Below, piece by piece: positions 2,763-37,669 of a stretch of 59,587 nt of DNA. How positions within the stretch are numbered: the stretch's first letter is position 1; each line of letters begins with the position of its first letter. The notes beneath the pieces were generated by a model. It ran no database searches and was not told the origin of the DNA. It saw only the letters and a list, made by a program, of their open reading frames with translations. This stretch comes from an uncultured Bacilli bacterium (GTDB lineage Bacteria; Bacillota_I; Bacilli_A; RF39; UBA660). The translations under genes and the position numbers were made by a program. Location of the stretch: assembly GCA_934091015.1 (NCBI GenBank), contig CAKOKM010000001.1, positions 1 to 59,587 on the forward strand, given 5' to 3'.

Positions 2763-2772
2763 CCCCCTGAAG
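2763..2772 (+). other. att core copy A (attL-type junction), CCCCCTGAAG
   Basis: The same core recurs at 18135-18143, 19573-19582 and 37562-37570, each time directly 5' of a different terminator hairpin. Confidence 0.65.
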
Positions 2773-2803
2773 AGGACATGATTCATTATGTCCTCATTTT
2801 TTT
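2772..2803 (+). terminator. Intrinsic terminator
   Basis: Stem GAGGACAT / ATGTCCTC with an 8-nt loop, followed by A and T7. Confidence 0.75.
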
Positions 2804-2851
2804 GCCCTAAATTAAAGGAGTTGCGAAGTTTTGAAATTTCTAAAATAAGTT

Positions 2852-2890
2852 TTAGGCGACATTTAGGCGACATTTTTGAAAATTAGGCGT
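2852..2890 (+). repeat. Arm-type direct repeats TTAGGCGACA (two full copies plus TTAGGCGT), left arm of element 1
   Basis: Copies at 2852-2861, 2863-2872 and 2883-2890. The identical 10-mer occurs three times next to the integrase gene at 18007-18070. Confidence 0.65.
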
Positions 2891-2946
2891 AATTAGAGGA
2901 TGTTTTGTGGTAAGAAATTAATAAAAAATAATAGTAATAAAAATGC

Positions 2947-3005
2947 TAATTCAAAATCAGTACTTCCATATTTTAGAATCTGTTATACTAATATTGAAGG
3001 CGGTG
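2947..3005 (+). promoter_or_regulatory. Recurrent leader motif copy A (TAATTCAAAATCAGTAC...)
   Basis: One of five related leaders in element 1, placed directly upstream of an RBS and start codon (here the sirtuin gene). Confidence 0.4.
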
Positions 3006-3728
3006 ATGTGTATGGATAATAATTTAAAAAAATTGAAAGAAATAATAGATAATTCAAATAACATAGTATTTTTTGGTGGTGCAGGAGTATCTACTGCTAG
3101 TGGACTTCGTGATTTTAAAGGTGAAAATGGCTTATATAAAGATAAGTATGACAAACCAACTGAATATTATTTAAGTGCAGGTTGCTTTTATAGAGAGTCA
3201 GAAGTGTTTTATAAGTTTTATAAAGAAAATATGAATACATTAAACGTTGAACCTAACATAATTCATTATTATTTAACTGAATTAGAAAAACTTGGAAAAT
3301 TAAAGGCAATAGTAACTCAAAATATAGATGGCTTACATCAAAAAGCAGGAAGCAAAAATGTTTTAGAAGTACATGGTACAACTTATAAAAACCATTGTAT
3401 TAAATGTGGAAAAGAATACAGTGCAGAATTTGTTTTTAATAGTGTTGGCGTGCCTAAATGTTCATGTGGTGGAACTATCAAACCCGATGTAGTTCTATAT
3501 GGTGAGATGCTTCCAGAAGCATATTCTCTTGCAGTATCGTATATTTATAAAGCAGAAACTTTAATAGTAGCTGGAACTTCACTTACTGTTGAACCTGCTT
3601 GTGGCTTAGTAAAAATATTTAATGGAAAGAATCTAGTTATTATTAATGATACTCCTACTCAATATGATAACCTTGCTACTTTAGTTATTCATAGGAAAAT
3701 GGAAGATGTTATTAGGGAAATTCATTAA
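3006..3728 (+). CDS. cobB: Sir2-family NAD-dependent protein deacylase (sirtuin)
   Basis: GGAGVSTASGLRDF NAD-binding motif, QNIDGLH, catalytic H in EVHGT, and a Zn ribbon CxxC...CxC (CIKCGKEY...CSCGG). The ORF track starts at 2943; ATG 3006 (or 3012) fits the usual sirtuin N-terminus. Confidence 0.85.
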   Translation: MCMDNNLKKLKEIIDNSNNIVFFGGAGVSTASGLRDFKGENGLYKDKYDKPTEYYLSAGCFYRESEVFYKFYKENMNTLNVEPNIIHYYLTELEKLGKLKAIVTQNIDGLHQKAGSKNVLEVHGTTYKNHCIKCGKEYSAEFVFNSVGVPKCSCGGTIKPDVVLYGEMLPEAYSLAVSYIYKAETLIVAGTSLTVEPACGLVKIFNGKNLVIINDTPTQYDNLATLVIHRKMEDVIREIH

Positions 3729-3744
3729 ATAGCAAGCATTGAAG

Positions 3745-3774
3745 CAGAGATTGAAATAAATATCTCTGTTTTTA
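3745..3774 (+). terminator. Intrinsic terminator after the sirtuin gene
   Basis: Stem CAGAGAT / ATCTCTG followed by a T-run. Confidence 0.7.
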
Positions 3775-3925
3775 TTTATTTTCGGGGTTGGCAGTTCAAA
3801 GAATTTATGTTACATTAAGACTACAATCAAAAACTTAAAAAACAAAAAAGAAATATCTATCATCTATACACAGTAATATATCTATATATTCAATTAGGCA
3901 ACAGTAATCTGTTGCTTTTTCTATG

Positions 3926-3987
3926 CGATTCAGAGTCAGTCATAATCATTTCTAAAATGTGGTTAAATAATTATGGAGGTTATAAAA
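3926..3987 (+). promoter_or_regulatory. Recurrent leader motif copy B (CGATTCAGAGTCAGTCA...)
   Basis: Diverged copy of the TAATTCAAAGTCAGTAC leader, ending in a GGAGG RBS and ATG 3988. Confidence 0.35.
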
Positions 3988-4296
3988 ATGAAGAAAATAG
4001 AAAAACTTATGTTAAAAGAAGAAGATCAAATTCTTAAAGACACACTTGCAATATGTTTAGCGAAATTAATAGGATTACACTACAAATATTACAAGAATAA
4101 GAAATTTGATACATTTGACCAATACTGCGATAGTTATACCTGTTTCACTATCTTGTCAGAAAAGGAAAAGGTAGAACTATACCATACTGTTGATAAGATT
4201 ATGGAGCAAGAATATAATCTGTTCTTCGCACACTATGAGTTAGGTAAACCAATTTATTTAGTGGATGTTTCAGGAAAGGATGATATTGTATGCTAA
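3988..4296 (+). CDS. Hypothetical protein
   Basis: ORF 3973-4296. The GGAGG at 3975-3979 favours ATG 3988. No recognisable motif. Confidence 0.55.
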   Translation: MKKIEKLMLKEEDQILKDTLAICLAKLIGLHYKYYKNKKFDTFDQYCDSYTCFTILSEKEKVELYHTVDKIMEQEYNLFFAHYELGKPIYLVDVSGKDDIVC

Positions 4297-4574
4297 ATAC
4301 CTCAATGCTAGTTGGAAAAATAAATGAAATAATAAATGAAGGTCAAGGTAAAATTCTATTATCACTAGCAGTACAAAGACCTTATAAAAATGAAAATGGT
4401 TCTTATGATGTTGACTTAATTCCTTGCACTTTATCTGGCACAATTTCTAATTCAATTGAAAAATACTGCAATATTGGTGATGTTGTAGGAGTTCGAGGAA
4501 GTTTAAGAGTTATTGGAACTAACTTAACTTTATCAGCAGATAAAGTTACATTCTTAAGTACAAAGAAGGTTTAA
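4290..4574 (+). CDS. Short SSB-like OB-fold protein
   Basis: 94 aa. The pattern N-x-V-x-L-VG-K-I ... DLIPCTL ... GDVVGVRGSLR resembles the OB core of bacterial and phage single-stranded DNA-binding proteins. Overlaps the preceding gene by 7 nt. Confidence 0.5.
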   Translation: MLNTSMLVGKINEIINEGQGKILLSLAVQRPYKNENGSYDVDLIPCTLSGTISNSIEKYCNIGDVVGVRGSLRVIGTNLTLSADKVTFLSTKKV

Positions 4575-4585
4575 GGTGATTAATT

Positions 4586-5026
4586 ATGGAGTTAGTTTAT
4601 AGTACTGGTGGTCGTGAGAAGTATTACAATGCTATTAAAGTTGGTGATTGTGCTTGCAGGGCTATTGCTAATGGTACAGGAATGGATTATAAAGAAGTTT
4701 ATGATTTAATTAATAGTTATGCAGAAAGAGAACATATAAGTAAAAGAAAGAAAACAAAGTCAAATGCTAGAAATGGTGTTCATAAGGAAACCATTTATAA
4801 GTTACTTACTGATTTAGGTTGGAAATGGGTACCAACAATGTTTATCGGTAAAGGTTGTCAAGTTCATTTGAATGAAAAAGAACTACCTACTGGTACATTA
4901 ATAGTTAGTGTCTCAAAACATTTAACCTGTGTTAAAGATAGAAAATTATATGACACCTATGATTGTACTAGAAATGGTACTAGATGTGTTTATGGCTACT
5001 ATATCAAGGAGGCATATGATTTATGA
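4586..5026 (+). CDS. Hypothetical protein with a possible Cys/His/Asp papain-like signature
   Basis: 146 aa. DCACRAIA near the N-terminus, then SKHLTCVKD...YDTYD near the C-terminus. Recalls a family common on ICEs and phages. Not verified. Confidence 0.5.
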   Translation: MELVYSTGGREKYYNAIKVGDCACRAIANGTGMDYKEVYDLINSYAEREHISKRKKTKSNARNGVHKETIYKLLTDLGWKWVPTMFIGKGCQVHLNEKELPTGTLIVSVSKHLTCVKDRKLYDTYDCTRNGTRCVYGYYIKEAYDL

Positions 5027-5379
5027 AAGGCGTAGATAGATTAAAAAAATTAGCAGAGGGACAAGAAGATCCCTCTCTACTTAGGGTTATAGAGTATTTA
5101 GTTAATATAGATGAGTTAAATGAAATGTATCTTAATGTTGATAAGTCGTTAAAAAGTATGGTTGATTATATAAAAGATATGGCTAAGAAGTTATCAAAAG
5201 ATGGATACTGCTGGGTTGAAGATACTACTGTTTATGAATGGGCGGTTAATTATTGGAGTAAATCAGATGAAGAATTAGGTATTAAAAAAATTACACCTAC
5301 TCCTAAAACTAAAGCTGAAGTAACACGTGATGAGGTTATACCAGAAGTAAAACAGGTAGGCCAACTATCGTTATTCTAG
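5023..5379 (+). CDS. PcfK-like protein
   Basis: 118 aa. KSLKSMVDYIKDMAKK...VEDTTVYEWAVNYW...DEELGI and the C-terminal QLSLF match my recollection of the PcfK-like family. Sits directly upstream of a PcfJ-like gene, as on conjugative elements. Confidence 0.55.
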   Translation: MKGVDRLKKLAEGQEDPSLLRVIEYLVNIDELNEMYLNVDKSLKSMVDYIKDMAKKLSKDGYCWVEDTTVYEWAVNYWSKSDEELGIKKITPTPKTKAEVTRDEVIPEVKQVGQLSLF

Positions 5380-5392
5380 AGGTGGTTAAATT

Positions 5393-6823
5393 ATGGGGTA
5401 TATCAATAAAGAATTACAGAACCTTATAAAATCCATGGATAAAACATTTTCAGTTGGTCTAGGTGTACGAAAATGGTTGAGACAAAGTATCTACCCTAAA
5501 CATAATCTTATACTTAAGTCAAAAGAAGGTTATTACTGTACCAATTGTAAGAAAAGTTTTCATTCAACTGTTAAAGTTGGAGAATATACTATATGCCCCA
5601 AATGTAAGCAAGAACTATTAGTTAGAATGAATACATTGCAGCGTCAAGTTTTCAAAGATGATTTTAGAATACTTGAATTTATTGATGGTTACTTTGTACT
5701 AAGAGGGTTTGAGGTACTATCACTATATAATAATCATCAAGTATCACATCAGTATCAAGAGTACCAAAGATTAGTTATATCAAAGGATAAAATATATCTA
5801 CTTGCATCTGACGTTCTAAAAAACTATATGGGATATCTTTCTGTTAGTCATAATGAAAAGCATACTAGTTGGAGATTACTAGATAGTCAGTATAGATGGT
5901 ATATGTCTAGAGGGAGTATCTACTGGGGAGAATTAGAGAGGGATACTTATGGTACTGTATATCACTACTGCCCTATACAGAGGGTACTACTATCATATAC
6001 TGGAGATACTAGTATAGAGATATTACTTCAAAGAATATTAAATAACCCTACATCATTTGAATTGTTATCTAAATTAGAACTTACTAATCTTGCAATTGAT
6101 TGTGATGAGTTTACAAATAAGGGTTCATTTGAAAATAGATTTGGCGTTACTAAAGATTATCTTCCTTTTATGACTAAGAACAATTTGAATTATAATGAAC
6201 TGGAAGTTCTGCAAGTAATTAAACATAAGAATATAAGTATCGTTAAGAAGTTAAGTCAATTAAGCAATTTTAAAGAACTATCTAATTATTTAGATATGGA
6301 AAAAGCGCTATCTAATGGACTTAATGAAACTAATGAACATTTATATAAGGACTACCTTGACTTTGCTAAGCGCTTACACCTGAATATGAAAGACAAAAGA
6401 GTTTTATACCCTACTGACATAGTTAAATCACACGATGAACTTATGCACCAAGTAGAAACTATTGAAAACCAAGAAATCATTGAAAAAATTAAAATCAGGT
6501 ATGAAGAATTAAAGCAATTAAGTTATCACGATGATAAGTATGTGGTTTTCCCTGTTCCAAGTTTGTCAGATTTAATTCGTGAATCCGAAGTACAAAATAT
6601 ATGTATTAGAAGTTACAACGAAAGGTATGCCAATGGAGAGACCAATTTATTTTTTATGAGAAGTATAAAAAATATGAGCAAACCGCTTGTAGCTATTGAA
6701 GTTAAGGATGGAAAAATTTTGCAAAGTCGTGGAAAAAGAAATAATGATCCTACTAAAATGCAGAAAGCATTTATAAACAAGTGGGAAAATGAAATTTTGA
6801 AAGGAAGTGCGTTATATGCCTAG
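5393..6823 (+). CDS. PcfJ-like protein
   Basis: 476 aa. N-terminal Cys4 (CTNC...CPKC). C-terminal block LIRESEVQNICIRSYNERY...NLFFMRS...PLVAIEV...ILQSRGKRNN resembles the PcfJ domain. Paired with the PcfK-like gene. Confidence 0.5.
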   Translation: MGYINKELQNLIKSMDKTFSVGLGVRKWLRQSIYPKHNLILKSKEGYYCTNCKKSFHSTVKVGEYTICPKCKQELLVRMNTLQRQVFKDDFRILEFIDGYFVLRGFEVLSLYNNHQVSHQYQEYQRLVISKDKIYLLASDVLKNYMGYLSVSHNEKHTSWRLLDSQYRWYMSRGSIYWGELERDTYGTVYHYCPIQRVLLSYTGDTSIEILLQRILNNPTSFELLSKLELTNLAIDCDEFTNKGSFENRFGVTKDYLPFMTKNNLNYNELEVLQVIKHKNISIVKKLSQLSNFKELSNYLDMEKALSNGLNETNEHLYKDYLDFAKRLHLNMKDKRVLYPTDIVKSHDELMHQVETIENQEIIEKIKIRYEELKQLSYHDDKYVVFPVPSLSDLIRESEVQNICIRSYNERYANGETNLFFMRSIKNMSKPLVAIEVKDGKILQSRGKRNNDPTKMQKAFINKWENEILKGSALYA

Positions 6824-7094
6824 GTTTGATATTGGAAAATTTGTTATGACTAAAGGTGTAGCGAGTGAAATAGATAACAACCCTAATTATAAAATGGAAC
6901 TACTTGATTGCTTAACAAGGTATTTGAATTGTGATTGGGGTAATTTATGTGATACTGATAAATTATTAAATGAAGATGCTATTAAAAATGATGAAAGGAT
7001 ACTAGCAAGGTATAACACTTCGTGTGGTGATATTTATATCATAACAGAAAGGGATAGAAGTTATACTACTATGCTGTATGTGGGTGAATATTAA
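6816..7094 (+). CDS. Conserved plasmid/ICE-associated hypothetical protein
   Basis: About 92 aa. DWG...ILARY...IYIITERDRSYTTMLYVGEY resembles a small family I recall from plasmids and ICEs. AAGGAAG RBS 8 nt before ATG 6816. Confidence 0.5.
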   Translation: MPRFDIGKFVMTKGVASEIDNNPNYKMELLDCLTRYLNCDWGNLCDTDKLLNEDAIKNDERILARYNTSCGDIYIITERDRSYTTMLYVGEY

Positions 7095-7315
7095 TGAATA
7101 TATATGAGAAAACCGCCAAGAATATTAAATATTATCGTAAGTTAAAGGGATTAACACAGGATGAAGTTGCTGAATTAACAGGCTATTCGCCAGAATATAT
7201 AAGAAGAATTGAATCTCCACATGGAAAGAAGAAAGGTTTTACATTAAAGGCAGTATACGTAATATCTTTAGCATTGGAAGTACCTATTGAGGAACTATTT
7301 AATGACCGAACATAA
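7094..7315 (+). CDS. XRE-family HTH transcriptional regulator
   Basis: 73 aa. The HTH_3 pattern IKYYRKLKGLTQDEVAELTGYSPEYIRRIE. Confidence 0.75.
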   Translation: MNIYEKTAKNIKYYRKLKGLTQDEVAELTGYSPEYIRRIESPHGKKKGFTLKAVYVISLALEVPIEELFNDRT

Positions 7316-7385
7316 ATAGCTTAATTCAAAGTCAGTACATCCACTTTTTAAAGTATGCTATGTTATTTATTGAAAGGAGGTAAAT
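7301..7385 (+). repeat. Direct repeat copy C (gene tail plus TAATTCAAAGTCAGTAC leader)
   Basis: AATGACCGAACATAAATAGCTTAATTCAAAGTCAGTACATCC... is nearly identical over its first ~41 nt to 8039-8079 and related through to the RBS. Confidence 0.8.
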
Positions 7386-8057
7386 ATGAAATCATTAAAA
7401 ACAGGATTTAATGAATTAGACAAGTTAATAAATGGGCTGAATGGCGGTGATTTAATTGGAATTGCTGCTCGACGTGGTATGTGTAAAACATCTTTTGGAA
7501 TAAACCTAATAAACAACGTATCTAAACAGACTAATAAAAGGATATTATATTTCAATTTGGATTCATTAAAAGAAAACAATTTATTTAAAAAAATTATCAA
7601 CAATAATGTTGAGGTAATAGATGATGTTAGTCTAATTGAAGATATTAAGAACAAATGTGAAGAAGTAAATAAAAAAGATATTTCATTGGTTGTTATTGAC
7701 TATCTACAATTGATTACTAATAACAAAAAATATAAAAGTAAGTTAGCTAAAACACTTGATGAATTGCCAATATTGAAAGTTCTAGCATTAGAGTTAAATA
7801 TTCCAATAATTATTATTTCACGTCTATCAAAGATTATAGATAAAAGAGAATATAAAAAACCTACTCTATCTGATGCAAGGGCTGTTGGAATAATACAAGC
7901 CTGTGATAAGATTATTTACTTATATAGTGATGATTATTATAATGATGAACCTATAAAGGAACTTGAACTAATTGTTGCCAAAAATCGTGGTGGAAGTTTA
8001 GGAACAATTAAAATAGAATTCAATCTAGAGAATGGTTTAATGACCGAACATAAATAG
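7386..8057 (+). CDS. DnaB-like helicase C-terminal-domain ATPase (RecA-fold)
   Basis: 223 aa. GFNELDKLINGLNGGDLIGIAARRGMCKTSF (Walker A region) and LVVIDYLQLI (Walker B), typical of the DnaB C-terminal domain. No N-terminal DnaB domain. Confidence 0.7.
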   Translation: MKSLKTGFNELDKLINGLNGGDLIGIAARRGMCKTSFGINLINNVSKQTNKRILYFNLDSLKENNLFKKIINNNVEVIDDVSLIEDIKNKCEEVNKKDISLVVIDYLQLITNNKKYKSKLAKTLDELPILKVLALELNIPIIIISRLSKIIDKREYKKPTLSDARAVGIIQACDKIIYLYSDDYYNDEPIKELELIVAKNRGGSLGTIKIEFNLENGLMTEHK

Positions 8058-8125
8058 TTTAATTCAAAGTCAGTACATCAATATTTTTAGATGTGCTATG
8101 CTTATACCTGAAAGGAGATATGTTT
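8039..8125 (+). repeat. Direct repeat copy D (gene tail plus TAATTCAAAGTCAGTAC leader)
   Basis: AATGACCGAACATAAATAGTTTAATTCAAAGTCAGTACATCA..., partner of 7301-7385. The shared segment encodes NDRT-stop in one gene and MTEHK-stop in the other, in different frames. Confidence 0.8.
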
Positions 8126-8665
8126 ATGAAAAAAGTTGATTTTGACAGGTACAAAGACGCTTGCTATTACATGACACCTGACGAATTAAAAAAATATGTT
8201 GATAATACTATTTCAATATGGGGAGATATCAACAAACAGAATATAAAACAAATTGAAGCAGTATTTGAAAATGATGTTTATGTGCTGCTTAATGATGGAA
8301 AACTTTATGAAAATGGTAAGCAAATCCTAGATGGTATTGCTGAATTATGGTGCATGAATATTCATTACTTATTTGTTATTACTAAAGAAAACTATGTATA
8401 TTCAATCCAAGATAACATATTCAATAATTATATTGGTAATACTAAATATAAGAAGATAGTTAAATCAGGATTAGATTTGTTAGCATTAACTTATGATAAG
8501 AATGTTAAATCGCTGACATCATATCCGGAGTTTATAGGAATAGAACCTGAAAACTTTATTGATGTAGATGATATATCAATTACTGGTGAACTTGGTACAC
8601 CATATGTTATTAAAAATGGTAAAAAGATTCCATTGTATATCAGTGAGTATAATGAGGAAGAATAA
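8126..8665 (+). CDS. Hypothetical protein
   Basis: ORF 8093-8665. The AAAGGAGA RBS favours ATG 8126. No recognisable catalytic motif. Confidence 0.55.
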   Translation: MKKVDFDRYKDACYYMTPDELKKYVDNTISIWGDINKQNIKQIEAVFENDVYVLLNDGKLYENGKQILDGIAELWCMNIHYLFVITKENYVYSIQDNIFNNYIGNTKYKKIVKSGLDLLALTYDKNVKSLTSYPEFIGIEPENFIDVDDISITGELGTPYVIKNGKKIPLYISEYNEEE

Positions 8666-8686
8666 TTCTTCCTTTTATTTTGCTCT

Positions 8687-8707
8687 AATTCTGAATCAGG
8701 TGCTACA
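8687..8707 (+). promoter_or_regulatory. Recurrent leader motif copy E (TAATTCTGAATCAGGTGCTAC), degenerate
   Basis: Follows a terminator hairpin (8655-8679) and precedes the serine recombinase gene. Confidence 0.3.
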
Positions 8708-8865
8708 GTTGGTGCTGATAAGTTAAAATTATAGTGTGTGGGAAAACAATTGTTTTTATGTACACAAATAAATACTATTATTTTAGTATTAAAACATTGA
8801 TTTTTTTGGTAAAAATGTGTACAAAAATAGAAGAAGGTTTTCTAATACATTGGGAGGAATTAAAA

Positions 8866-9468
8866 ATGAAATATCTTTATATGAGAGCAAGTACAAACGA
8901 AACAAAACAATCATTACAAAGACAAGAAAAATTTGGTCGGGATAATGCCATTCCAGAAAGTAATTGGTTTAGAGAATATGCCTCTGGTGCAAAGGATAAT
9001 AGAATTGAATTAAATAAGTTATTATCTATAGTTGGTGAATCAGATGAAATATATTGTGTAGATCCTAGTCGTCTAACTAGAAGTTTAAAATATTTACTTG
9101 AATTAGTTGAATTTGCAAAAGAAAAGAAAATAAAATTAGTACTAGGTGACTTTATACTTGATTGTTCTGGTGAAATATCAGTATTCACTCAAGGGCAACT
9201 AATGATGTTGGGATTAATAAATGAAATGCAAAGACTAATGATAGTAGAAGCTGTAAGAGAGGGACTTGCATCAAGTAAAGAAAGAGGAATTATAGGTGGT
9301 AGACCAAGAACAACCATTGATAATATACCAGAAAGTTTTTATAAATATTATGCAATGTATAAAAATAATCAAATAACTAAGGTTGAATTTAGCAAGATAT
9401 CTGGATTGTCTAGAAGTTCAATATACAAATATATAAATATTATAGAAAATAAAAAAGATGAAATTTGA
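8866..9468 (+). CDS. Small serine recombinase (resolvase/invertase family)
   Basis: N-terminus MKYLYMRASTNETKQSLQRQ (YxRxST..Q..Q catalytic-serine motif), SGAKDNR, DPSRLTRS, and a C-terminal HTH (ISGLSRSSIYKYI). GGGAGG RBS before ATG 8866; the ORF-track start 8734 is unlikely. Confidence 0.8.
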   Translation: MKYLYMRASTNETKQSLQRQEKFGRDNAIPESNWFREYASGAKDNRIELNKLLSIVGESDEIYCVDPSRLTRSLKYLLELVEFAKEKKIKLVLGDFILDCSGEISVFTQGQLMMLGLINEMQRLMIVEAVREGLASSKERGIIGGRPRTTIDNIPESFYKYYAMYKNNQITKVEFSKISGLSRSSIYKYINIIENKKDEI

Positions 9469-30759: not shown

Positions 30760-30801
30760 ATGCTATAATACATATAATTATTTATTCTTGGAGGGATTTA
30801 T

Positions 30802-33522
30802 ATGGATGAAAGTATTAAATTTATTAATCGGAAAATCAATGATTTGAATATTAAGATAGAAAAAAATATAGATGATTCTATTGATAATAGGGGCTACATG
30901 TCTCAAAATATAATAAAGAGTTTAAGAGATTTGGTAGAATTTATAGCTTTTAAAGTATATGTTGTTGAATACAAGAAGGATTATGTAGAATATAATCATG
31001 TGAATAACGGACTTGCTATTAAGTATATTAAATCTTTATATAAGCATGAAATATTAAAGAACTTTCATGCCTTATTAGAAATTGGACCTTCACATAATAG
31101 TTATAGTGAGGATGGTTCAATTAGATTAATGGTTAAATATCAAGAGTATCTTGTTGATCTAAAAAGATATTATTTTGAGTTGTTTAAAGAAAAAATATTA
31201 ACAAATTTATATAAATTTCCTATGTTTAAAATAGACCCATCTTTATATGATTACTATAAAGAAATATATAATAAGTTAATTCAAATAAAATTTGATAATA
31301 GTGAACGAGTTTTAGGTAATGCATATTATATTAAGAAAACAAAGCCAGTTGCTATAGAAGATAGAGTTTTTTATGAATTAACATTGACGCCAGCTACCGA
31401 CTATGTTAATAAATTTAATAGAATTATTTTTTATTCTCCAGTTAGAATTCCGGATAATTATGCTATTAAAATAAGCTATGTAAGTAAAAATATAAAATCA
31501 TTTAAATCAGAAGTAGAAATCAAGATAATTAATAATTATGAGATATTTATCAAACCGGCTGAAATAAATAGTTTGTACAAAATATTTGGTATTAATAGAA
31601 GAGTATCATATCGTGCAAATGAATATGATTATTTTATGAAATTATTAAAAAATAATCGTTGGACATTAAATCATATTATTAATTTGAATGATGAAGAATT
31701 TGTAATAATTAGACAGGAGTCATCAGTTTATAATACTCATCATTTGTTTGAATTGTTAGAAATGATAAGAAATGTTATTATTAACAATAAACCCGGTCAT
31801 AATGTTTTAAAGTACTTAATACATGTATTGAGAAATTCTGTAGTTATTGATCAAATATGTGATCGGCAATGTAAAATACTATCAGATTTATGTTTAGAGT
31901 ATGGGTGTAATGTTTTTGAAACTATGCCATATGCCTCTTCATTAAATGGTCATAAAATATCTATATCAGATTTATTTGAAATAATTGATCCAGTAAATAG
32001 AGAGCATGAGTTCTTTGGAAGAAAGATAAATGATTTATGCAATTCAACAAATAGAATTTATTTTTCTTTTAAGGAATTAGGTTATGATGAAGAAGATGGA
32101 AAAAAACTTATAAAAGAATTTAATAAGCGCGTTTATTACAAACATACAGATAGATATTTAGAAACAGTTGGAAATAAAGTCTATATAAGAGGATTTGAAG
32201 AAAGTACGATAAAAATCATAGATGTTTTAAAAAGTAAAACTAATGAAAAATATTCTGATTATAAAAATATGTATGATATGTTTGAGGCTTTTAGCGATTA
32301 TGAATTTACTGATAGTATTAAGAAAAATATTTCTGAAAAAATATATATTAATTCAAAAGTTGGATTAATATATGGCTCTGCAGGAACAGGTAAAACTGAA
32401 ATGATTAAAATAATATCTAAAATATTTGATGGTAAAAAAATTGCTTTTTTAGCTAAAACTAATGCTGCTCTAAACAATATTAAAATTCGAGTTGGTAAAG
32501 AGGCAATGGATAACTACAAATTTTATACTGTTGATAAATTTGTTGATAATTCTATAAGAGATAGTTATGATTTAGTTGTTGTAGATGAGTGTAGTATGGT
32601 AGAGAATGATATAATGCTTCAAATGTTAAAGAAAAATAATTATGATTGCTTACTATTAGTTGGTGATATATATCAAATTGAAGCAATTGAGTTTGGTAAC
32701 TGGTTTAGATTTGCAAAGGAATTGATTCCTGAAAATTCATATGAACTAACTGAAAATTTTCGAACTACGAATCATGGATTAAAGAATTTATGGTCTAAAG
32801 TAAGAAATCTAGATGATGGTATTACTGAGAAAACAATTGACGAAGCTTATTCAGAAATATTAAGTGAATCAATATTTGAAAATAGAGAAGATGAAGAAAT
32901 TGTTCTATGTTTGAATTATGATGGCCCATATGGGATTAATAATATAAATAGATATTTGCAGATGACAAATAAAAATAAACCAATAGAATGGGGAATAAAT
33001 ACATATAAGGTTGGAGATCCAATTATATTTAGTGATGTAAGGAGATTTTCTAATGTTTTATATAATAATCTTAAAGGAAAAATTCTAAAAATTGAAAAGA
33101 ATGAAGGTAGCATAACTTTTGAATTATTTGTAGAAAGAAGAATTTCTGATTTTGATGCCTTTGCCAATAACATTAAAGTTATTTCTAGGGGAGATGATGG
33201 ATCGGTTATAGAAATAAAGGTATTACGAAAAGATGATGATGATAAAGATGATGAAGTAGGTTATATTGTTCCTTTCACGGTATCTTATGCTACATCTATA
33301 CATAAATCACAAGGTTTAGAATTTGATTCCGTTAAAATTATTATTTCTGATGAGTCCGAAGAATTAATTACTAAAAATATATTTTACACCGCAATAACTA
33401 GGTCTAAAAATCATCTTAAAATTTACTGGAGTCCAGAATGCCAAAATAAAGTTATTAAGAACATGAAGGATTACAGTTTGAAAGATGATGTAATTATTAT
33501 AAAAAATAAAATGAAAAATTAA
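30802..33522 (+). CDS. 906-aa protein: unknown ~520-aa N-terminal region plus a RecD/Dda-like SF1 helicase
   Basis: GSAGTGKTE (Walker A), LVVVDECSMV (Walker B), and SIHKSQGLEFDSVKIII and FYTAITRSKNHL (motifs V/VI of the RecD-like AAA_30/UvrD_C_2 type). Own extended -10 TGCTATAAT at 30761-30769. Confidence 0.7.
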   Translation: MDESIKFINRKINDLNIKIEKNIDDSIDNRGYMSQNIIKSLRDLVEFIAFKVYVVEYKKDYVEYNHVNNGLAIKYIKSLYKHEILKNFHALLEIGPSHNSYSEDGSIRLMVKYQEYLVDLKRYYFELFKEKILTNLYKFPMFKIDPSLYDYYKEIYNKLIQIKFDNSERVLGNAYYIKKTKPVAIEDRVFYELTLTPATDYVNKFNRIIFYSPVRIPDNYAIKISYVSKNIKSFKSEVEIKIINNYEIFIKPAEINSLYKIFGINRRVSYRANEYDYFMKLLKNNRWTLNHIINLNDEEFVIIRQESSVYNTHHLFELLEMIRNVIINNKPGHNVLKYLIHVLRNSVVIDQICDRQCKILSDLCLEYGCNVFETMPYASSLNGHKISISDLFEIIDPVNREHEFFGRKINDLCNSTNRIYFSFKELGYDEEDGKKLIKEFNKRVYYKHTDRYLETVGNKVYIRGFEESTIKIIDVLKSKTNEKYSDYKNMYDMFEAFSDYEFTDSIKKNISEKIYINSKVGLIYGSAGTGKTEMIKIISKIFDGKKIAFLAKTNAALNNIKIRVGKEAMDNYKFYTVDKFVDNSIRDSYDLVVVDECSMVENDIMLQMLKKNNYDCLLLVGDIYQIEAIEFGNWFRFAKELIPENSYELTENFRTTNHGLKNLWSKVRNLDDGITEKTIDEAYSEILSESIFENREDEEIVLCLNYDGPYGINNINRYLQMTNKNKPIEWGINTYKVGDPIIFSDVRRFSNVLYNNLKGKILKIEKNEGSITFELFVERRISDFDAFANNIKVISRGDDGSVIEIKVLRKDDDDKDDEVGYIVPFTVSYATSIHKSQGLEFDSVKIIISDESEELITKNIFYTAITRSKNHLKIYWSPECQNKVIKNMKDYSLKDDVIIIKNKMKN

Positions 33523-33579
33523 TAAGTATATATGTATATGCTTTTTGTATTAAAATTTATTTATTAAATATTATAATAA

Positions 33580-33632
33580 TATACCGATAACAGTATAAAT
33601 ATATTGACAAATTATACCGGCAACGGTATAAT
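33580..33632 (+). promoter_or_regulatory. Promoter with two TATACCG-N4-CGGTATA palindromic operators
   Basis: TTGACA (33604-33609), 17 nt, TATAAT (33627-33632). O2 TATACCGGCAACGGTATA (33613-33630) fills the spacer and -10. O1 TATACCGATAACAGTATA (33580-33597) lies upstream. Confidence 0.65.
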
Positions 33633-33651
33633 GTAATTAGAGGTGAAAATT

Positions 33652-34578
33652 ATGGAATTTATGACTACAAAAGAAACTGTAAAAAAGTGGGGTATTAGTG
33701 AAAGAAGAATAAGACAATTATTACAAGATGGAAGAATTGAAGGTGCTGTAAAAGTAGGTAATAATTGGAATATTCCTATTAATGCTAATAAACCAGCTGA
33801 TAAAAGAAGCATGAAATTAGATAATACTGAATTTATATTTGATTTACCTGATAATTATTTTGATAAAGTTGATGAATTAAATAAAGAATTAAATTCTAAA
33901 AGACCTATATCTAACGAAACATTAAAATCTTTAAAGGAATCTTTCAATTTAGAGTGGACTTATAATAGTAACGGTATAGAAGGAAATACATTAACGTTAA
34001 GAGAAACACAAGTTGTTTTAGAAGGTATTACTGTTGGTGGTAAATCATTAAAGGAACATTTAGAAGTTATTAATCATGAACAAGCAATATTATTCTTAGA
34101 TGATCTTATTAAAGATAAGAAACCAATTACAGAATGGAACATTAAAAATATTCATCAATTAGTTTTAAAAGAAATAGATGATGATAACGCTAGTAGATAT
34201 AGAGATGAGAATGTAAAAATAAAAGGTGCTACACATATTCCACCAGATTATTTAATAGTTCCAGAATTAATGGAAAAATTAATTATTAACTATGAAGATT
34301 GGAAAAAATATCATCCAATTATTAGAGCTGCATTATTACATGGAGAATTAGTTAAAATACATCCATTTGTTGATGGTAATGGCAGAACTTCAAGATTAGT
34401 TATGAACTTATCTTTAATGAATAGCGGATATCTTCCAGTAATTGTAAAAAAAGAAAAAAGATTAGAATATTATAATGCTTTAGATAAAGCATATACTACT
34501 GGAGATTATACTGATTTTATTAAATTAGTTAATGAATTAGAAATTGAAATGTTAAATAAATATTTAGAATTGTTGTAG
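33652..34578 (+). CDS. Fic-family protein with an N-terminal HTH
   Basis: Fic motif HPFVDGNGRTSRL. Upstream SNGIEGN fits the (S/T)xxxE(G/N) auto-inhibitory helix motif. N-terminus TTKETVKKWGISERRIRQLLQDGRI is an excisionase/MerR-type HTH. AGAGGTGA RBS before ATG 33652. Confidence 0.85.
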   Translation: MEFMTTKETVKKWGISERRIRQLLQDGRIEGAVKVGNNWNIPINANKPADKRSMKLDNTEFIFDLPDNYFDKVDELNKELNSKRPISNETLKSLKESFNLEWTYNSNGIEGNTLTLRETQVVLEGITVGGKSLKEHLEVINHEQAILFLDDLIKDKKPITEWNIKNIHQLVLKEIDDDNASRYRDENVKIKGATHIPPDYLIVPELMEKLIINYEDWKKYHPIIRAALLHGELVKIHPFVDGNGRTSRLVMNLSLMNSGYLPVIVKKEKRLEYYNALDKAYTTGDYTDFIKLVNELEIEMLNKYLELL

Positions 34579-34592
34579 TGTAGGTGATTAAA

Positions 34593-37385
34593 ATGAAAAA
34601 TAAGTTTAAAAACTTATATAAAATTAAAATAAGCAATACTATTTATATAATAATTTGTTGTATTACTATGGCTTTACTCTTTGATTTATCAAAATACATT
34701 TTTTCTAATTTATTAAATATTCATTTAGGTTTGAATTTTGAAATTGATTTTATGGCTATTTATGCTGGTTTTTTAACATTAATATTACCTGTTGCAATAC
34801 TAATAATTGAAAGAATTGAAAACTTAGATAATGCAATAATTTCAGAAACGTATTTAAGGGAAACGGCAATTTTCCCAGTTATTGTTTATTTTGTAGTTAA
34901 TTTGCTAATATTTGCATTTAATAATAATCAATATTTCTTTATTGTATCATCGATTATTTCAACTGTTTTAATAGTTTATATGTATTATAAATCATTTAAA
35001 ATGATTTCAAATTTAATTTATGAAAAAGAAAAGATTGGAATTGTTAATGAAGAGGTAATATCAAATGATTTAGTAGATCAAACTACACATTTTAGTGAAG
35101 ATAACAAAATAACTATTTATCAAAAATATGGAGTATATGTTGGAAGATATAATTATATTTCAACTGAAGGATATAAAAAGAAACCATTATATCCAACAAA
35201 TAATTACTTGATAATTAAACAGTATAATTATCGTGTTATAAATAAGTTAATAAAAAAGTTGAAAATATATAATAAGTTATTTATTGATACATATATACCT
35301 AACGAAGAAAATGTTGAATATAGCAATGATAATAAGCCTAACGTTATAGTAGTTCTTTCTGATATTGGATCAACGTTAAATAAAAATAATAGTTGGATAT
35401 CGATATACTATAAAAATGTATCATATAATGATGTAGAAATGATTATAGAAATATTAAAAAATAAAGTTTATATAACTTCAGAGTCAAATAGCCATTTGTA
35501 TATTGAAGTAGCATATAAAGGGATATTGAAAGATTGCATTGAATCTATTAATAGTAATTCTTCTTCGCTTTTATCTGAAAATTTAGAAAGATATCTTGAA
35601 ATATATAAGAATTACATTAATGAGTTTTCATCAAAAATTGGATCATTTACTTATGAAGAATCTTATAGCCACATAAACTCCTTTATTAGATTTAGAGGAA
35701 TGGATTTTCTGACAAATGTTCAAAAGAATATATATGATTATTCTTCAATGATATTGGAAAAAAATAATGTAAGATTAATGAATTCTTTAATAAGTTTTTT
35801 ATATAGTGCTATTCTTTATTCGTATCAAAAAAAAGAATTGCTATCTATTCAACTATTATATGGCACATATGAATATTTATGTGAATGTTCTCTTAAATTG
35901 AATGATAATTCTTCATTTGAAAAAATCAAATTAGAAATATTTGAATTTATGAACATGATAAAATATGATATGCCCAAATCAGAGGATAGATTTGAGAAGG
36001 ATACATTATTAGTGTGCAATAGAGTTATTGGTAATATAATATTTAACTTAAGTCGTAAGGACGAGGAAAAATGTTTGAAATTTTACAAAAAAATATTCAA
36101 TTATATTAATGAAATATCTGAAGAATTGGATTCTGTGGATTGTGATGTTTCTGATAATAATATGATGTATCATAATACTTTGACTGATATATATGATAAT
36201 TTAACTTGTAATATTTTTGCAGTAACAGCTTATGCAATACAAAAAAATAAAAATTTGGATGTCGAAAAACTATTATTGTTTTACGATAAAATTGATGTGA
36301 ATTCTTTGAGCAATATATTAACTAAATCAATATATTTTGACTTCAATAATCGTAATTATTCATGGGATTTAATGGATATGGATAATATTGATGATGATGG
36401 AGTATACAATATAAATACAACTTATTATTTCATACATTTATATTGCTTGTTGATTTCAAGAAAGAATATTAATTCTATAAAAATTAAAAGTAATTTTGAA
36501 TTAAGCAATCAATCTGATAGTATAATAAGTGAATTAAAAAATATGAACAAAGAAGAGTATATTGAGTTATTTGAAAATGTTAAATCAGATGTAGAAAAGG
36601 AAGAAAAAGAGTATATTCGAAAAACACCAATTTCACCAGATAAAATTGAGAATTTCAAAAATAAGTTTTTTGAATATTATGACAAGCATAATAGATTGGT
36701 AAAACTATTTAACATAACAGATAATTTAAAAATAATTAAAAGAAAGAAAAAAGGAAAAAATTATCTAGGAATTAGAAATATAGTTGATAAAACATATTTT
36801 TTAGAAAAAACACCAAATAATAGATGTATCATATGGAGTAATTTTGAAGAAAATTATGCTAATTCCTTTATTAATTCTGAGGAAAATAAATTTGCAATCG
36901 CATTAAATAACAATTCATCATTAAGTGATAAATCAATTATTGATTATTTACAAGATTTAAGCATTATAAAGCTTAAAAAAAGTATATTATTTTCTAATTA
37001 TGAAACAATACATAAAATATTTGGATATAGTAATATATCATATAAGAAAGAAGATAATAAAGAATATGCTAATTTATTTGTTATGATAAAAGGAATTTAC
37101 GTTCCAATCACAGTTATAAATGGTATTGATGAAAATTGCATATATCATGTTTTTGATAATAAAATAGGGAAACTTGAAAAATTAGATAACAGTTTTGAAA
37201 TTGAAATACTTGATTTTTATAACAATGATGAATTATTAAAAAAATGTATGAATGAAAAAATTAATGGTTTAGATTTAACCGGTATAGAAAGAAAGAATCA
37301 CTTATTAGAATCAGTTGACTTATTTATTCAAGAATATATACATATTAATGTTGATAACTTGATATCGTTAAAATTTTATCATTAA
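34593..37385 (+). CDS. 930-aa membrane-anchored hypothetical protein
   Basis: Starts 15 nt after the fic stop with an AGGTGA RBS. About four N-terminal hydrophobic helices (residues ~15-140), then ~790 aa with no recognisable motif. Confidence 0.6.
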   Translation: MKNKFKNLYKIKISNTIYIIICCITMALLFDLSKYIFSNLLNIHLGLNFEIDFMAIYAGFLTLILPVAILIIERIENLDNAIISETYLRETAIFPVIVYFVVNLLIFAFNNNQYFFIVSSIISTVLIVYMYYKSFKMISNLIYEKEKIGIVNEEVISNDLVDQTTHFSEDNKITIYQKYGVYVGRYNYISTEGYKKKPLYPTNNYLIIKQYNYRVINKLIKKLKIYNKLFIDTYIPNEENVEYSNDNKPNVIVVLSDIGSTLNKNNSWISIYYKNVSYNDVEMIIEILKNKVYITSESNSHLYIEVAYKGILKDCIESINSNSSSLLSENLERYLEIYKNYINEFSSKIGSFTYEESYSHINSFIRFRGMDFLTNVQKNIYDYSSMILEKNNVRLMNSLISFLYSAILYSYQKKELLSIQLLYGTYEYLCECSLKLNDNSSFEKIKLEIFEFMNMIKYDMPKSEDRFEKDTLLVCNRVIGNIIFNLSRKDEEKCLKFYKKIFNYINEISEELDSVDCDVSDNNMMYHNTLTDIYDNLTCNIFAVTAYAIQKNKNLDVEKLLLFYDKIDVNSLSNILTKSIYFDFNNRNYSWDLMDMDNIDDDGVYNINTTYYFIHLYCLLISRKNINSIKIKSNFELSNQSDSIISELKNMNKEEYIELFENVKSDVEKEEKEYIRKTPISPDKIENFKNKFFEYYDKHNRLVKLFNITDNLKIIKRKKKGKNYLGIRNIVDKTYFLEKTPNNRCIIWSNFEENYANSFINSEENKFAIALNNNSSLSDKSIIDYLQDLSIIKLKKSILFSNYETIHKIFGYSNISYKKEDNKEYANLFVMIKGIYVPITVINGIDENCIYHVFDNKIGKLEKLDNSFEIEILDFYNNDELLKKCMNEKINGLDLTGIERKNHLLESVDLFIQEYIHINVDNLISLKFYH

Positions 37386-37391
37386 AAAAAG

Positions 37392-37427
37392 AGCATATAT
37401 AGCTACGTAACCTATATATGCTTTTTA
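37392..37427 (+). terminator. Intrinsic terminator
   Basis: AGCATATATAG-CTACGTAAC-CTATATATGCT followed by T5. Confidence 0.75.
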
Positions 37428-37561
37428 TATGTCTGCACAGTTTTTTGTACAATAAATTGATTAAATTTTGCTGTGCAAGATTAAACATTTTTAAACTATG
37501 TGCCTTGAAAACGTTGATATTAAAGGGATTAAATAGGTATGATTTACCCATTATTGTTCGT

Positions 37562-37570
37562 CCCCTGAAG
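37562..37570 (+). other. att core copy D, CCCCTGAAG
   Basis: Preceded by ATTAAATAGGTA (the same words that begin the sRNA at 2696-2707) and followed by ...CTCTCATTTTTTTGTGCCC, homologous to 2792-2808. Confidence 0.55.
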
Positions 37571-37649
37571 AGAGAATTTAACCGTGCTCTCATTTTTTTG
37601 TGCCCATTTTATAAAAAGTTTGCGGGGCATCGGTATTGCTAAAATAATT

Positions 37650-37669
37650 TTAGGTACAATTTAGGTACA
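37650..37669 (+). repeat. TTAGGTACA direct repeats (candidate arm sites of element 4)
   Basis: Copies at 37650-37658 and 37661-37669, with spacing and context parallel to TTAGGCGACA at 2852-2872. Confidence 0.45.

Follow-up and report, generated by a model that had tools for sequence, protein, structure and literature searches.

Direct core repeats point to serial integration of elements at the 3′ end of a candidate small RNA gene in an uncultured Bacilli bacterium

The window, the whole stretch of 59,587 nt analysed here, contains four copies of the short core CCCC(C)TGAA, at 2763, 18135, 19573 and 37562, every one of them on the + strand. Very probably these are att junctions, produced as a series of elements with tyrosine integrases integrated site-specifically at one site, the 3′ end of a conserved gene of about 100 nt for a small RNA (sRNA) downstream of recG-DUF975. 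The evidence lies in the repeats, hairpins, arm sites and integrase of the window, in the conservation and covariation of the sRNA, and in polymorphism boundaries that coincide with the cores. A preliminary description had proposed one att core at four junctions and serial accretion at a single site; all four positions are confirmed, and accretion is supported by the boundary coincidence and by the rarity of the core with a hairpin. It missed that the att site appears to be the 3′ end of the sRNA gene, and that the hairpins are replacement terminators for that sRNA. Tandem accretion is a known mechanism; the sRNA target gene and the host lineage are new.

The target site and its core sequence

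The target site carries the following features.
2668–2696, + strand: promoter of the sRNA gene, TTGACA-17-TATTAT, 11/12 match to consensus
2701–2803, + strand: candidate sRNA gene of about 100 nt, made up of two hairpins, then an invariant single-stranded tail that ends in CCCCCTGAA, then a terminator; the putative attachment site is its 3′ end
2763–2771, + strand: core A, attL of element 1 and final 9 nt of the sRNA body
2772–2803, + strand: terminator hairpin A and T run, the present sRNA terminator, supplied by the element left end; 10-bp stem then ATTTTTTT, A/D left-end family

The predicted sRNA fold has an energy of −33.9 kcal/mol (z −6.35), and the covariance model (R1) scores 86 bits at this position, its sole match in the window. 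Compensatory changes are found at 13/13 pairs, with 98.2% paired compared with 26–51% in slid controls. Uncultured Bacilli of gut and rumen share the promoter, both hairpins and the invariant tail, ATCAACCAAAACCCCCTGAA, which were seen downstream of recG-DUF975 in about 25 genomes and no fewer than 120 metagenome contigs; around 25 related genomes keep TTGACA and a −10-like box in the same register. Compared with Rfam, this RNA matched no family above threshold; it is conserved and apparently undescribed, its expression and function being predictions.

The core forms the last 8–9 nt of the sRNA body, directly 5′ of the terminator. The sequence CCCCCTGAA occupies 2763–2771, 18135–18143 and 19573–19581, and the fourth copy, core D, is CCCCTGAA at 37562–37569, preceded by T. 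The core had been given as CCCC(C)TGAAG; the shared block is indeed present at four sites, but its trailing G is missing at core B, hence the common block is 8–9 nt and not 10. The exact 9-mer CCCCTGAAG was observed three times in the window (0.05 expected) and never on the − strand. In the window and 1.53 Mb of related DNA the 8-mer was counted 159 times; 139 of these copies were that of the sRNA itself, and the further copies with a terminator (n = 11) all lay downstream of the sRNA and on its strand, so that in this DNA the core with its hairpin is not common elsewhere. There was no opposite-strand core near the sRNA in related loci, and no conserved inverted core-type binding sites were found around the 8-mer.

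These counts bear on the reading that core and hairpin recur only by chance or as a common terminator module, in an island built without site-specific recombination. A core of just 8–9 nt, segments C and D devoid of integrase and a right island edge devoid of core would suit such an origin. However, the excess of the 9-mer, its strict strand bias and the rarity of the 8-mer outside the locus argue against it, as do presence/absence polymorphisms whose boundaries coincide with the 8-mer, arm-type repeats flanking the core and, in many genomes, integrase genes beside it. This reading is already disfavoured and we consider it highly improbable.

Element 1 and the segments stacked behind it

The unit adjoining the sRNA comprises the following.
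2772–18134, + strand: element 1, 15.4 kb, encoding SIR2, SSB-like, PcfK/PcfJ, DnaB_C, a serine invertase, a RecA/UvsX-like protein, an 81-aa ORF and the integrase (Pfam, PHROGs)
2852–2872, + strand: P′ arm-type repeats, two copies of TTAGGCGACA, 11 nt apart
16813–17943, + strand: tyrosine integrase with arm-binding domain (Pfam Phage_integrase, Arm-DNA-bind_4, SAM_3; phrog_1)
18007–18070, + strand: P arm-type repeats, three copies of TTAGGCGACA
18135–18143, + strand: core B, attR of element 1 and left junction of segment B

The integrase retains the catalytic residues R..HxxR..H..Y. Among solved structures, 3nkh and Tn1549 Int come closest to it, at low identity and with a similarity (E 1e-10 to 1e-13) that is confined to the catalytic domain. 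As originally stated it is the only integrase gene, tblastn of the window finding no second locus. Matches to capsid, terminase, relaxase or T4SS were absent from element 1 in Pfam and PHROGs. The element is present as a single unit in 10 contigs; being intact and nearest the sRNA, it is presumably the youngest. The claim that it is still integrase-competent holds as far as the intact ORF and its catalytic residues, which suggest present-day activity, but no excision product was found: the identical integrase lies in the same integrated context in 10/10 contigs, this species yielded neither a circular attP junction nor an excised (empty) site, a metagenome scan with P side plus core gave 0 matches, and viral sequence scans gave chance matches only.

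Exact copies of TTAGGCGACA start at 2852 and 2863, and at 18007, 18019 and 18061; allowing up to one mismatch there are 8 matches in comparison to 0.95 expected. These positions, together with arm-type tandem words that vary with integrase lineage in related loci, agree with the earlier P/P′ arm reading. Likewise, junction-specific short repeats were confirmed behind the other three cores: TAGATACCA twice at 18208–18248, TTAGGTGG twice at 19642–19660 and TTAGGTACA twice at 37650–37669.

Two observations are additional to the preliminary description. Further exact copies of TTAGGCGACA lie at 19458 and 19499, and the stretch 17919–18143 (integrase 3′ end, P arm and core) is duplicated at 19370–19581 with 94–95% identity.

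Behind element 1 lie three further segments.
18144–18165, + strand: terminator hairpin B, a displaced terminator; identical sequence directly after the sRNA in L009 and L160
18144–19572, + strand: segment B, 1.4-kb chimeric relic with TAGATACCA-type left end (18208–18248), a pair of small ORFs, and the 3′ remnant of an integrase with TTAGGCGACA P arm (19370–19572)
19573–19581, + strand: core C
19582–19660, + strand: segment C left end, with terminator hairpin C, TTTATAAGG box and TTAGGTGG twice; same left end after the sRNA in L025
19582–37561, + strand: segment C, 18-kb defence-gene unit without integrase; Abi_alpha, two C5 methyltransferases with NgoFVII-type endonuclease, MazG-like, SLFN-type helicase, PDC-S53, SoFic-like Fic
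37562–37569, + strand: core D, start of homology to seven other loci
37570–37669, + strand: segment D left end, with decayed terminator D, TTATAA box and TTAGGTACA twice; old element of A's family
37570–46711, + strand: segment D as far as the conserved flank; HTH, UvrD/GajB-like helicase, Bro-N/PDC-S13, AEP-TOTE; lacks both an integrase and a right-hand core

A GC-rich terminator hairpin had been described directly after each core. It is strong at A, B and C (−9.6, −14.5 and −9.3 kcal/mol; z −4.0, −3.7 and −3.4; a T run after each), but that at D has decayed (−2.2 kcal/mol, z 0.07), being a mutated version of gagagca..tgctctc, which is intact in L011, L014 and L024. Alignment confirmed that the flanks after cores A and D are homologous. 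Segment B is a chimera of a TAGATAC-type left end and a TTAGGCGACA-type integrase remnant; TTAGATAC P arms are found in L076.

The cargo is largely composed of anti-phage defence genes, in a 44-kb hypervariable defence island. The conserved flank begins at 46712 or 47059 in strains with identical ArcA. No core is present at the right edge (∼46712), and a 7.2-kb cassette (39825–47058) comes and goes with no cores at its bounds. Hence att recombination does not explain all of the ∼45 kb and other processes also shape the island; its earlier attribution as a whole to stacked elements went too far for the stretch from D to ∼46712.

Junctions in related genomes and a model of accretion

Comparison of the window with related loci (L numbers) placed insertion boundaries at the cores. 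Homology ends at 2771–2775 in 11 loci, where short metagenome contigs also break, and the members of the sister pairs L016/L017, L022/L023 and L028/L025 part within one base of where CCCCTGAA ends. Seven loci (L011, L024, L076, L106, L147, L161 and L178) share the D flank, their homology to it beginning at 37561–37562. The order in L009 is sRNA, core, the whole of segment B, core and an A-type left end, which differs from the window. Both empty sites and alternative occupants, as envisaged in the preliminary description, were found: in L167, L196 and L100 the sRNA and its own terminator are followed by convergent recG, and all four left ends that follow a core in the window are known from other genomes in direct contact with the sRNA, that of D in L011, L014, L024, L106, L147 and L178. 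The start of segment C (19641 onwards) adjoins the sRNA in L118 and L176. Furthermore, one element left end and integrase are shared by L008 and L023, where the DUF975 of the host has 98% and 44% identity, respectively, to that of the window; about 12 loci have an integrase homologue at a distance of 90–250 nt from the core; and arrays of cores with different terminators occur in other lineages (L092, with three copies, L101, L125 and L185).

We propose that the identity block, the last 8–9 nt of the sRNA body just 5′ of the intrinsic terminator, would be the strand-exchange region. An incoming element would carry its own core copy, an adjoining GC-rich terminator hairpin, a TTTATAAGG-like box and then a pair of arm-type integrase sites. 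Because it brings core and terminator, integration would spare the promoter, body and invariant tail of the sRNA, which gains a new terminator; the former one, and everything behind it, would be displaced downstream each time. Repetition would give the stack of element 1, B, C and D, the last three integrase-less, and the arrangement suggests decay by internal deletion in B, integrase loss in C, and hairpin mutation with right-end loss in D. Cleavage positions and the order of events are thus proposed from the junctions as they stand. As the cargo is largely anti-phage defence, the sRNA tail would act as the entry point of the island.

Hairpin and arm region can be exchanged separately, a D-type hairpin being combined with A-type arms in L009b, a native-type hairpin with D-type arms in L019 and L182, and an A-type hairpin lying ahead of segment C in L118 and L176. 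Such combinations would fit two recombination sites, with some families crossing over in CCCCTGAA and the A/D family in or just after the terminator (∼CTC-ATTTTTT), so that the sRNA-adjacent hairpin is sometimes the host's own. Hairpin gaggacatgattcattatgtcctc precedes six different downstream sequences in close relatives, and 35-nt direct repeats in L138 span core and terminator. Moreover, at the right junction of L019 CCCCTGAA is missing and a native-type terminator is reduced to its loop and 3′ arm, which leaves room for recombination at or behind the hairpin. However, the six downstream sequences are recognisable homologues of one left-end family, for which plain divergence suffices; the P side of element 1 ends in CCCCCTGAA with a different hairpin at B, requiring a crossover at or left of the hairpin; and the 8-mer is present at every internal junction of the window. 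Two sites are therefore doubtful, and a single exchange region in the core is preferred.

It is conceivable, if rather unlikely, that a ready-made tandem (such as B+C+D or A+B) was acquired en bloc, either by outermost-att excision elsewhere and re-integration, as in cis-mobilisation of composite islands, or by homologous recombination of the flanks (recG-DUF975-sRNA and NUDIX-arcA). Among strains with identical ArcA the flanks are 96–98% conserved and the hypervariable interior is wholly different, as expected from island swaps by flank recombination, and segment B is a ready-made unit in L009. There is also precedent in ICE/CIME arrays, for which a review documents transfer of whole accreted tandems. 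Such acquisition is nevertheless compatible with accretion, since the internal cores still need site-specific integration somewhere, and the varying module order (B before an A-type end in L009, C beside the sRNA in L118 and L176) points to repeated independent events.

Comparison with known systems

Serial accretion as proposed here resembles that of ICE, IME and CIME (ICESt1/ICESt3-CIME at fda of Streptococcus thermophilus, IME/CIME at tRNA-Lys of S. agalactiae, PAISt of Streptomyces): att cores are directly repeated between stacked units, one tyrosine integrase looks functional, older units, like CIMEs, bear att sites without integrase, one target serves related integrases, and chimeric relics arise through internal deletions. 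The three-step accretion model of the ICE/IME/CIME review matches the array. In contrast, the target here is an sRNA gene and not a protein or tRNA gene, and defence genes make up most of the cargo. Since the units of the window gave no match to a relaxase, coupling protein or T4SS, the terms ICE and IME cannot be applied to any of them.

The site also resembles RNA-gene hot spots (tRNA, tmRNA, the 'traffic at the tmRNA gene', and enterobacterial ryeB/sdsR, ryeE and rybB), where several integrase lineages use as attB a short, highly conserved stretch at the 3′ end of the gene for a structured RNA; insertion restores that gene, and the locus turns into a hypervariable island rich in defence genes. 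Here the RNA is another one, without Rfam match, in uncultured low-GC Bacilli, and the identity block, of only 8–9 nt, ends before the terminator; the element hence swaps in a non-homologous hairpin instead of duplicating the 3′ end of the gene.

The integrase shares the Arm-DNA-bind_4, SAM-like and R..HxxR..H..Y catalytic domains of lambda-type tyrosine integrases of Firmicutes (Tn916/Tn1549 Int, phage integrases, phrog_1), and tandem arm-type repeats on either side of the core; unlike that of Tn916, the target is strictly site-specific. In staphylococci, several SCC/ACME cassettes at orfX (rlmH) are bounded by one short integration-site repeat at the 3′ end of that conserved gene, and only some of them carry recombinases. 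The window is similar in that its units lie between repeats of one short site at the 3′ end of a conserved gene; SCC, however, relies on Ccr, which are large serine recombinases, and targets a protein gene, whereas here a tyrosine integrase with arm sites is paired with an sRNA gene.

A candidate small RNA gene at the attachment site

The comparisons below lead us to conclude that a conserved small RNA (sRNA) gene, apparently not described before, probably provides the att site with its 3' end. The window has 26% GC and opens with recG and a DUF975 gene. The stretch between the DUF975 gene and the first core copy (core A) contains a near-consensus promoter (TTGACA-17-TATTAT), two hairpins and a single-stranded C-rich run that ends in the core, with terminator A coming next. 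As a whole, the hairpins, C-rich run and terminator A (2701–2803) give a fold of −33.9 kcal/mol (z −6.35).

Scanning species-representative genomes with the DUF975 protein yielded 65 loci from uncultured ‘Bacilli/Tenericutes’ gut MAGs, about 25 of which carry the same intergenic element. Across these loci the promoter boxes keep their register, both hairpins are preserved via compensatory changes, hardly any variation is seen in the block TGTATCAACCAAAACCCCCTGAA and none in ATCAACCAAAACCCCCTGAA within it, and a GC-rich hairpin whose sequence varies by genome lies directly behind the block. Likewise, the invariant 20-mer was found in at least 120 metagenome contigs from gut and rumen samples, nearly all with a hairpin and T run straight after the core, in dozens of sequence versions.

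A covariance model (R1) built from 12 sRNA copies found 60 copies. Its single match in the window lies at 2701–2771 (86 bits), and the idea that the internal cores B to D are partial sRNA duplications was rejected on that ground. Compensatory changes were present at 13 of 13 base pairs in the model-based alignment, which is fitted to the model and leans towards it; 98.2% of cells were paired, compared with 26–51% for slid partners. A MAFFT-only alignment had already shown covariation at 8 of the 13 pairs. MAFFT with RNAalifold on 30 diverse copies recovered hairpin 1 alone and misaligned hairpin 2, and the model-based alignment was used instead. The sequence features of a trans-acting sRNA gene are thus present, namely its own promoter, a structure supported by covariation and an intrinsic terminator.

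No Rfam 15 family reached threshold in the window or in 12 divergent sRNA copies, and a tRNA/tmRNA scan together with Rfam at gathering thresholds returned nothing in the window. Three known families were considered and rejected: RyeA (SraC/RyeA-SdsR, CL00105; 28.7 bits against a gathering threshold of 37, − strand only, absent from the 12 divergent copies), LhrC (22 bits against 110, not recurring in those copies) and Spot42 (a weak sub-threshold match, not recurring in other copies). The SraC/RyeA match, at 2665–2808 on the − strand, owes its score to the terminator and to the core's G-rich complement, and we judge it a likeness of architecture only; the resemblance is curious in that, in Salmonella, ryeA/ryeB is a hot spot for insertions.

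Three metagenome contigs (L167, L196 and L100; L-numbers denote related loci or contigs) come from lineages without a DUF975 gene; here too the 3' end of recG adjoins the sRNA, with the two genes convergent on opposite strands, so that the sRNA–recG linkage is older than that with DUF975. PFOR lies beyond recG in L167 and L196.

Core copies and insertion boundaries

The core is a CCCC(C)TGAA block of 8–9 nt, present four times:

2763–2771, + strand: core A, the copy at the sRNA
18135–18143, + strand: core B
19573–19581, + strand: core C
37562–37569, + strand: core D

All four copies lie on the + strand and none on the − strand of the window, the arrangement of att cores repeated directly in one orientation and delimiting units. 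The exact 9-mer CCCCTGAAG occurs three times, against 0.05 expected from shuffles of the window. The preliminary description gave the core as CCCC(C)TGAAG at all four junctions; the four copies stand, but junction B has A in place of the G, and D has T in place of the first C. It also placed a GC-rich terminator hairpin after every core. This holds for A, B and C, where stable hairpins (−9.6, −14.5 and −9.3 kcal/mol; z −3.4 to −4.0) are followed by T runs, but the hairpin after D is weak (−2.2 kcal/mol, z 0.07). Since the relatives L011, L014 and L024 have an intact version of the same hairpin (gagagca...tgctctc), D is best read as a decayed copy.

Each of the junction-specific tandem repeats that had been listed was found again. 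The repeat TTAGGCGACA occurs exactly seven times in the window, always on the + strand: twice behind core A, three times between the integrase gene and core B, as had been noticed, and twice more ahead of core C, which had been overlooked. These last two copies lie in a 215-nt duplication (17919–18143 versus 19370–19581, 94–95% identity) that takes in the final integrase codons, the P arm (the integrase side before the core) and the core. No fifth core was found near arcA at up to two mismatches in 46700–47700. A candidate terminator tail at 47141–47175 was dropped, its likeness being too weak to use.

Homology between the window and its relatives stops at 2771–2775 in 11 loci. Similarly, the sister pairs L016/L017, L022/L023 and L028/L025 are 96–98% identical upstream and split within a base of the end of CCCCTGAA. 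Several short metagenome contigs with an identical DUF975 protein stop at 2770–2774, as expected of an assembly branch point. Modules are also reordered among relatives. In L009 the sRNA and core are followed by a complete segment B (window 18135–19585, 97.5% identical), a core and an A-type left end (the stretch directly after a core); this is the same module as the window's segment B in changed order. The core-B left end lies behind the sRNA in L009 and L160, the core-C left end directly behind it in L025, and the core-D left end behind it in L011, L014, L024, L106, L147 and L178; in L076 and L161 the core ahead of the core-D left end is an internal one. L008 and L023, whose DUF975 proteins are 98% and 44% identical to that of the window, have in common one left end and the integrase next to it, and the pair is therefore mobile. 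Integrase homologues (43–75% identity) lie 90–250 nt from a core in about a dozen loci and a few kb away in others.

Core arrays also occur in other lineages (L092, with three copies, L101, L125 and L185), where a + strand copy of CCCCTGAA farther downstream has another terminator behind it, evidently the one that was displaced. At the unoccupied sites of L167, L196 and L100, the sRNA has its own terminator and is followed within 0.4–2.7 kb by recG in convergent orientation, the orthologues of L167 and L100 being 52% identical.

The 8-mer was counted 159 times in the window and 1.53 Mb of related DNA; 139 of these copies are the sRNA copy, and the 11 others that have a terminator are all on the strand of the sRNA, downstream of it. 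The preliminary description had named two outcomes that would speak against it, insertion boundaries away from the core copies and a core and hairpin context common throughout the genome. Both were tested: the homology ends, sister-genome splits and module reorderings agree with the core copies, the right island edge at about 46712 being without a core, and the core and hairpin context is not common elsewhere.

Element 1, the segments behind it and their left ends

The units delimited by the cores, with the right flank, are as follows:

2772–18134: element 1, with genes for SIR2, SSB-like, PcfK-like, PcfJ-like, DnaB C-terminal domain, small serine invertase, HTH and RecA/UvsX-like ATPase proteins, an 81-aa ORF and the integrase
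16813–17943: tyrosine integrase gene, next to the att site, the sole tyrosine-integrase locus in the window
18144–19572: segment B, a chimera of a left end with TAGATACCA arm words and a right end made of an integrase remnant and the TTAGGCGACA P arm
19582–37561: segment C, without an integrase
46742–47134: NUDIX gene (PDC-S07), in a flank conserved by some strains

The integrase matches PF00589, PF14657 and PF14659 and has an N-terminal arm-binding domain. Aligned to 3nkh and 6emy it shows LRxGE, HDFRH, GH and YSH, so that the R..HxxR..H..Y residues are present. With these catalytic residues and the arm-binding domain, it fits a predicted arm-binding tyrosine integrase of the lambda Int type, and the reconstructed attP has arm-type sites on either side of the core (three copies of TTAGGCGACA ahead of core B, two behind core A). 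Homologues of the 81-aa ORF are found in the integrase-proximal gene block of L008, L023 and L043.

Pfam and PHROGs searches of 2772–18134, in which several ORFs are unannotated, detected no relaxase, VirD4/VirB4 or T4SS, and found only PcfJ/PcfK-like proteins, with no role assigned. No capsid, terminase, structural or packaging PHROGs were detected in element 1, and no related contig was found in IMG/VR. On these negative results element 1 is not assignable as a prophage, ICE or IME.

No circular attP or excision junction was found in scans of JGI metagenomes and IMG/VR, collections that hardly cover the source samples, or in integrase-identical contigs; present activity of the integrase is thus something we infer. 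The JGI scan with the right end of element 1 and the core (GTTCTATTAAATCGCCCCCTGAA) gave no match, the IMG/VR scan with the P side and core only four unrelated chance matches, and a scan with the sRNA tail none. In an exact look-up, the GTG-start form of the integrase was unrecorded and the ATG-start form was present in 10 contigs, in the same context in all 10. A 15.2-kb contig considered as a possible circle maps to window 2749–17956, starts in the sRNA and breaks at the 17919 repeat, and was rejected. Within element 1, an 85-nt leader including the ribosome-binding region is repeated at 82% identity (7298–7382 and 8036–8120) ahead of two consecutive genes, for the DnaB_C protein at 7386 and a 190-aa ORF at 8093.

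By its composition, segment B matches the product expected of an internal deletion spanning two stacked elements. Its TAGATACCA arm type occurs elsewhere as a P arm in L076 and in integrase-adjacent form in L040. Segment C encodes Abi_alpha, two C5 methyltransferases with an NgoFVII-type endonuclease, a MazG-like protein, a Schlafen-type helicase, a PDC-S53 helicase (972 bits) and a SoFic-like Fic protein. Upstream of the paired C5 methyltransferase and NgoFVII-type endonuclease genes, three 38-nt promoter-like direct repeats (AAAAGTGCTGACTTTG...TATAAT, 21778–21939) may form an R-M control region, and a palindromic, terminator-like pair (84% identical) follows the SLFN-type helicase gene (30716–30758) and a 933-aa ORF (37384–37426). 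Behind core D lie an HTH gene and genes for a GajB-like UvrD helicase, Bro-N/PDC-S13 and an AEP-TOTE primase-helicase.

The conserved right flank starts at 46712 (NUDIX start) or at 47059 (inside NUDIX), with a core at neither. Strains with identical ArcA have wholly different upstream gene sets, including R-M systems, OLD/UvrD, RT-protease, HipA and KAP NTPase. Furthermore, a 7.2-kb block (39825–47058: UvrD/GajB-like, Bro-N (PDC-S13), AEP-TOTE and most of NUDIX), its ends without cores, is missing in four strains (L073, L075, L079 and L081), where 39824 is joined to 47059 inside the NUDIX 3' end. Farther on, in the arc operon, a single 794-aa ORF (49910–52294) joins carbamate kinase to an anaerobic C4-dicarboxylate carrier of the DcuC type, a fusion present in all 10 arcA loci retrieved.

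Nearly all left ends, in the window and elsewhere, have a common layout: terminator and T run, a TTTATAAGG-like box, and an 8–10-nt arm word present twice, one helical turn apart, about 65–95 nt behind the core. The word varies by integrase lineage (TTAGGCGACA, TAGGTACCCA, CTACCCATCA, TAGGTAGCA, GAACTACCA, TATGTGGCA and others), which fits the earlier suggestion of related integrases with diverged arm specificities. The box TTTATAAGG(G) lies about 10 nt past the T run on the P' (left-end) side, in the window at 18166–18180, 19606–19616 and 37600–37612 and in many loci; many elements that otherwise differ have, on the P side about 55 nt ahead of the core, a box CCTTTATTTCAC. One box is roughly an inverted version of the other, and they may bind an accessory factor or be extra integrase sites.

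Two small insertions were also seen. L029 (3148–4772) holds a very small element of the same family, with core, terminator, TTAGGCGA-type arm words, a 100-aa SSB-like ORF and an integrase within 0.8 kb; the integrase is 75% identical to that of the window, and the contig stops inside its gene. L138 has a 1.1-kb insert between 35-nt direct repeats of core and identical terminator (offsets 0 and +1089 from the sRNA core); being without arm-type repeats or a TTTATAAGG box, it may be a different kind of insertion.

Proposed build-up of the island and comparison with known systems

Crossover would take place inside CCCCTGAA, where the sRNA body meets its terminator, at cleavage positions that we infer. 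The element's core copy would bring its own terminator behind it and so re-terminate the sRNA, and the previous terminator would shift downstream along with the older DNA. There it would no longer be maintained; D, the L161 variant CCCCCGAAG and the junctions of L074 and L075 show this. Newcomers using the sRNA-proximal junction would come to rest nearest the sRNA, an order of events that agrees with the gradient from intact element 1 to decayed D.

A second crossover site may possibly lie within the terminator. In L019 (4250–4310, compared with L028 742–790), the right junction of a small D-type element consists of the loop and 3' arm of a native-type terminator (cgaaagactccattttttt), with no CCCCTGAA; it suggests such a site, and could be that or a deletion, whereas the downstream sequences shared behind the terminator are homologous left ends. 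Crossover in the core accounts for the core-bounded units, and to that extent the earlier picture of stacked att elements stands, but the right edge and the 39825–47058 indel are without cores. Hairpins and arm regions are also found in differing combinations among loci. Together with the L019 junction, these observations indicate that deletion, cassette exchange and possibly hairpin recombination also act on the island.

The analysis offers a mechanistic account of the build-up and turnover of a 44-kb defence island in a lineage of uncultured gut Bacilli with small genomes, in which mobile elements have hardly been studied. An attB that is short and strictly conserved (ATCAACCAAAACCCCCTGAA and hairpin) is defined, as is an integrase family with readable arm-site specificities; these could help to find such islands in metagenomes and might also provide tools for integration in these organisms. 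The analysis points, too, to a conserved structured RNA absent from Rfam. As a tentative joint reading, which we consider somewhat doubtful, the undescribed sRNA family would occur widely among uncultivated Bacilli of gut and rumen, and its C-rich, invariant tail AUCAACCAAAACCCCCUGAA would serve both as a functional single-stranded region and as a universal landing pad for a diversified integrase family; through the differing ‘portable terminators’ of the elements, the 3' end of a host regulator would be rewritten time and again, perhaps with an effect on its stability or termination efficiency. If so, there would be a physical, and possibly a functional, link between that sRNA and the defence island of these reduced genomes.

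Tandem accretion with decay to integrase-less, att-bounded units is well described in streptococcal ICE/IME/CIME arrays and other islands. The classical shared att sites are tRNA and tmRNA genes, and the enterobacterial sRNA genes ryeB, ryeE and rybB are known targets, including at defence hot spots. In contrast to these systems, the target here is an sRNA family absent from Rfam, the hosts are uncultured gut and rumen Bacilli, and the short identity block ends before the terminator, so that each element supplies a non-homologous one. The sRNA target, the host group and the terminator supply are new here; tandem accretion itself was already known. ‘Traffic at the tmRNA/tRNA gene’ is thereby extended to an sRNA gene in Firmicutes-like bacteria, with the terminator replaced, not duplicated.
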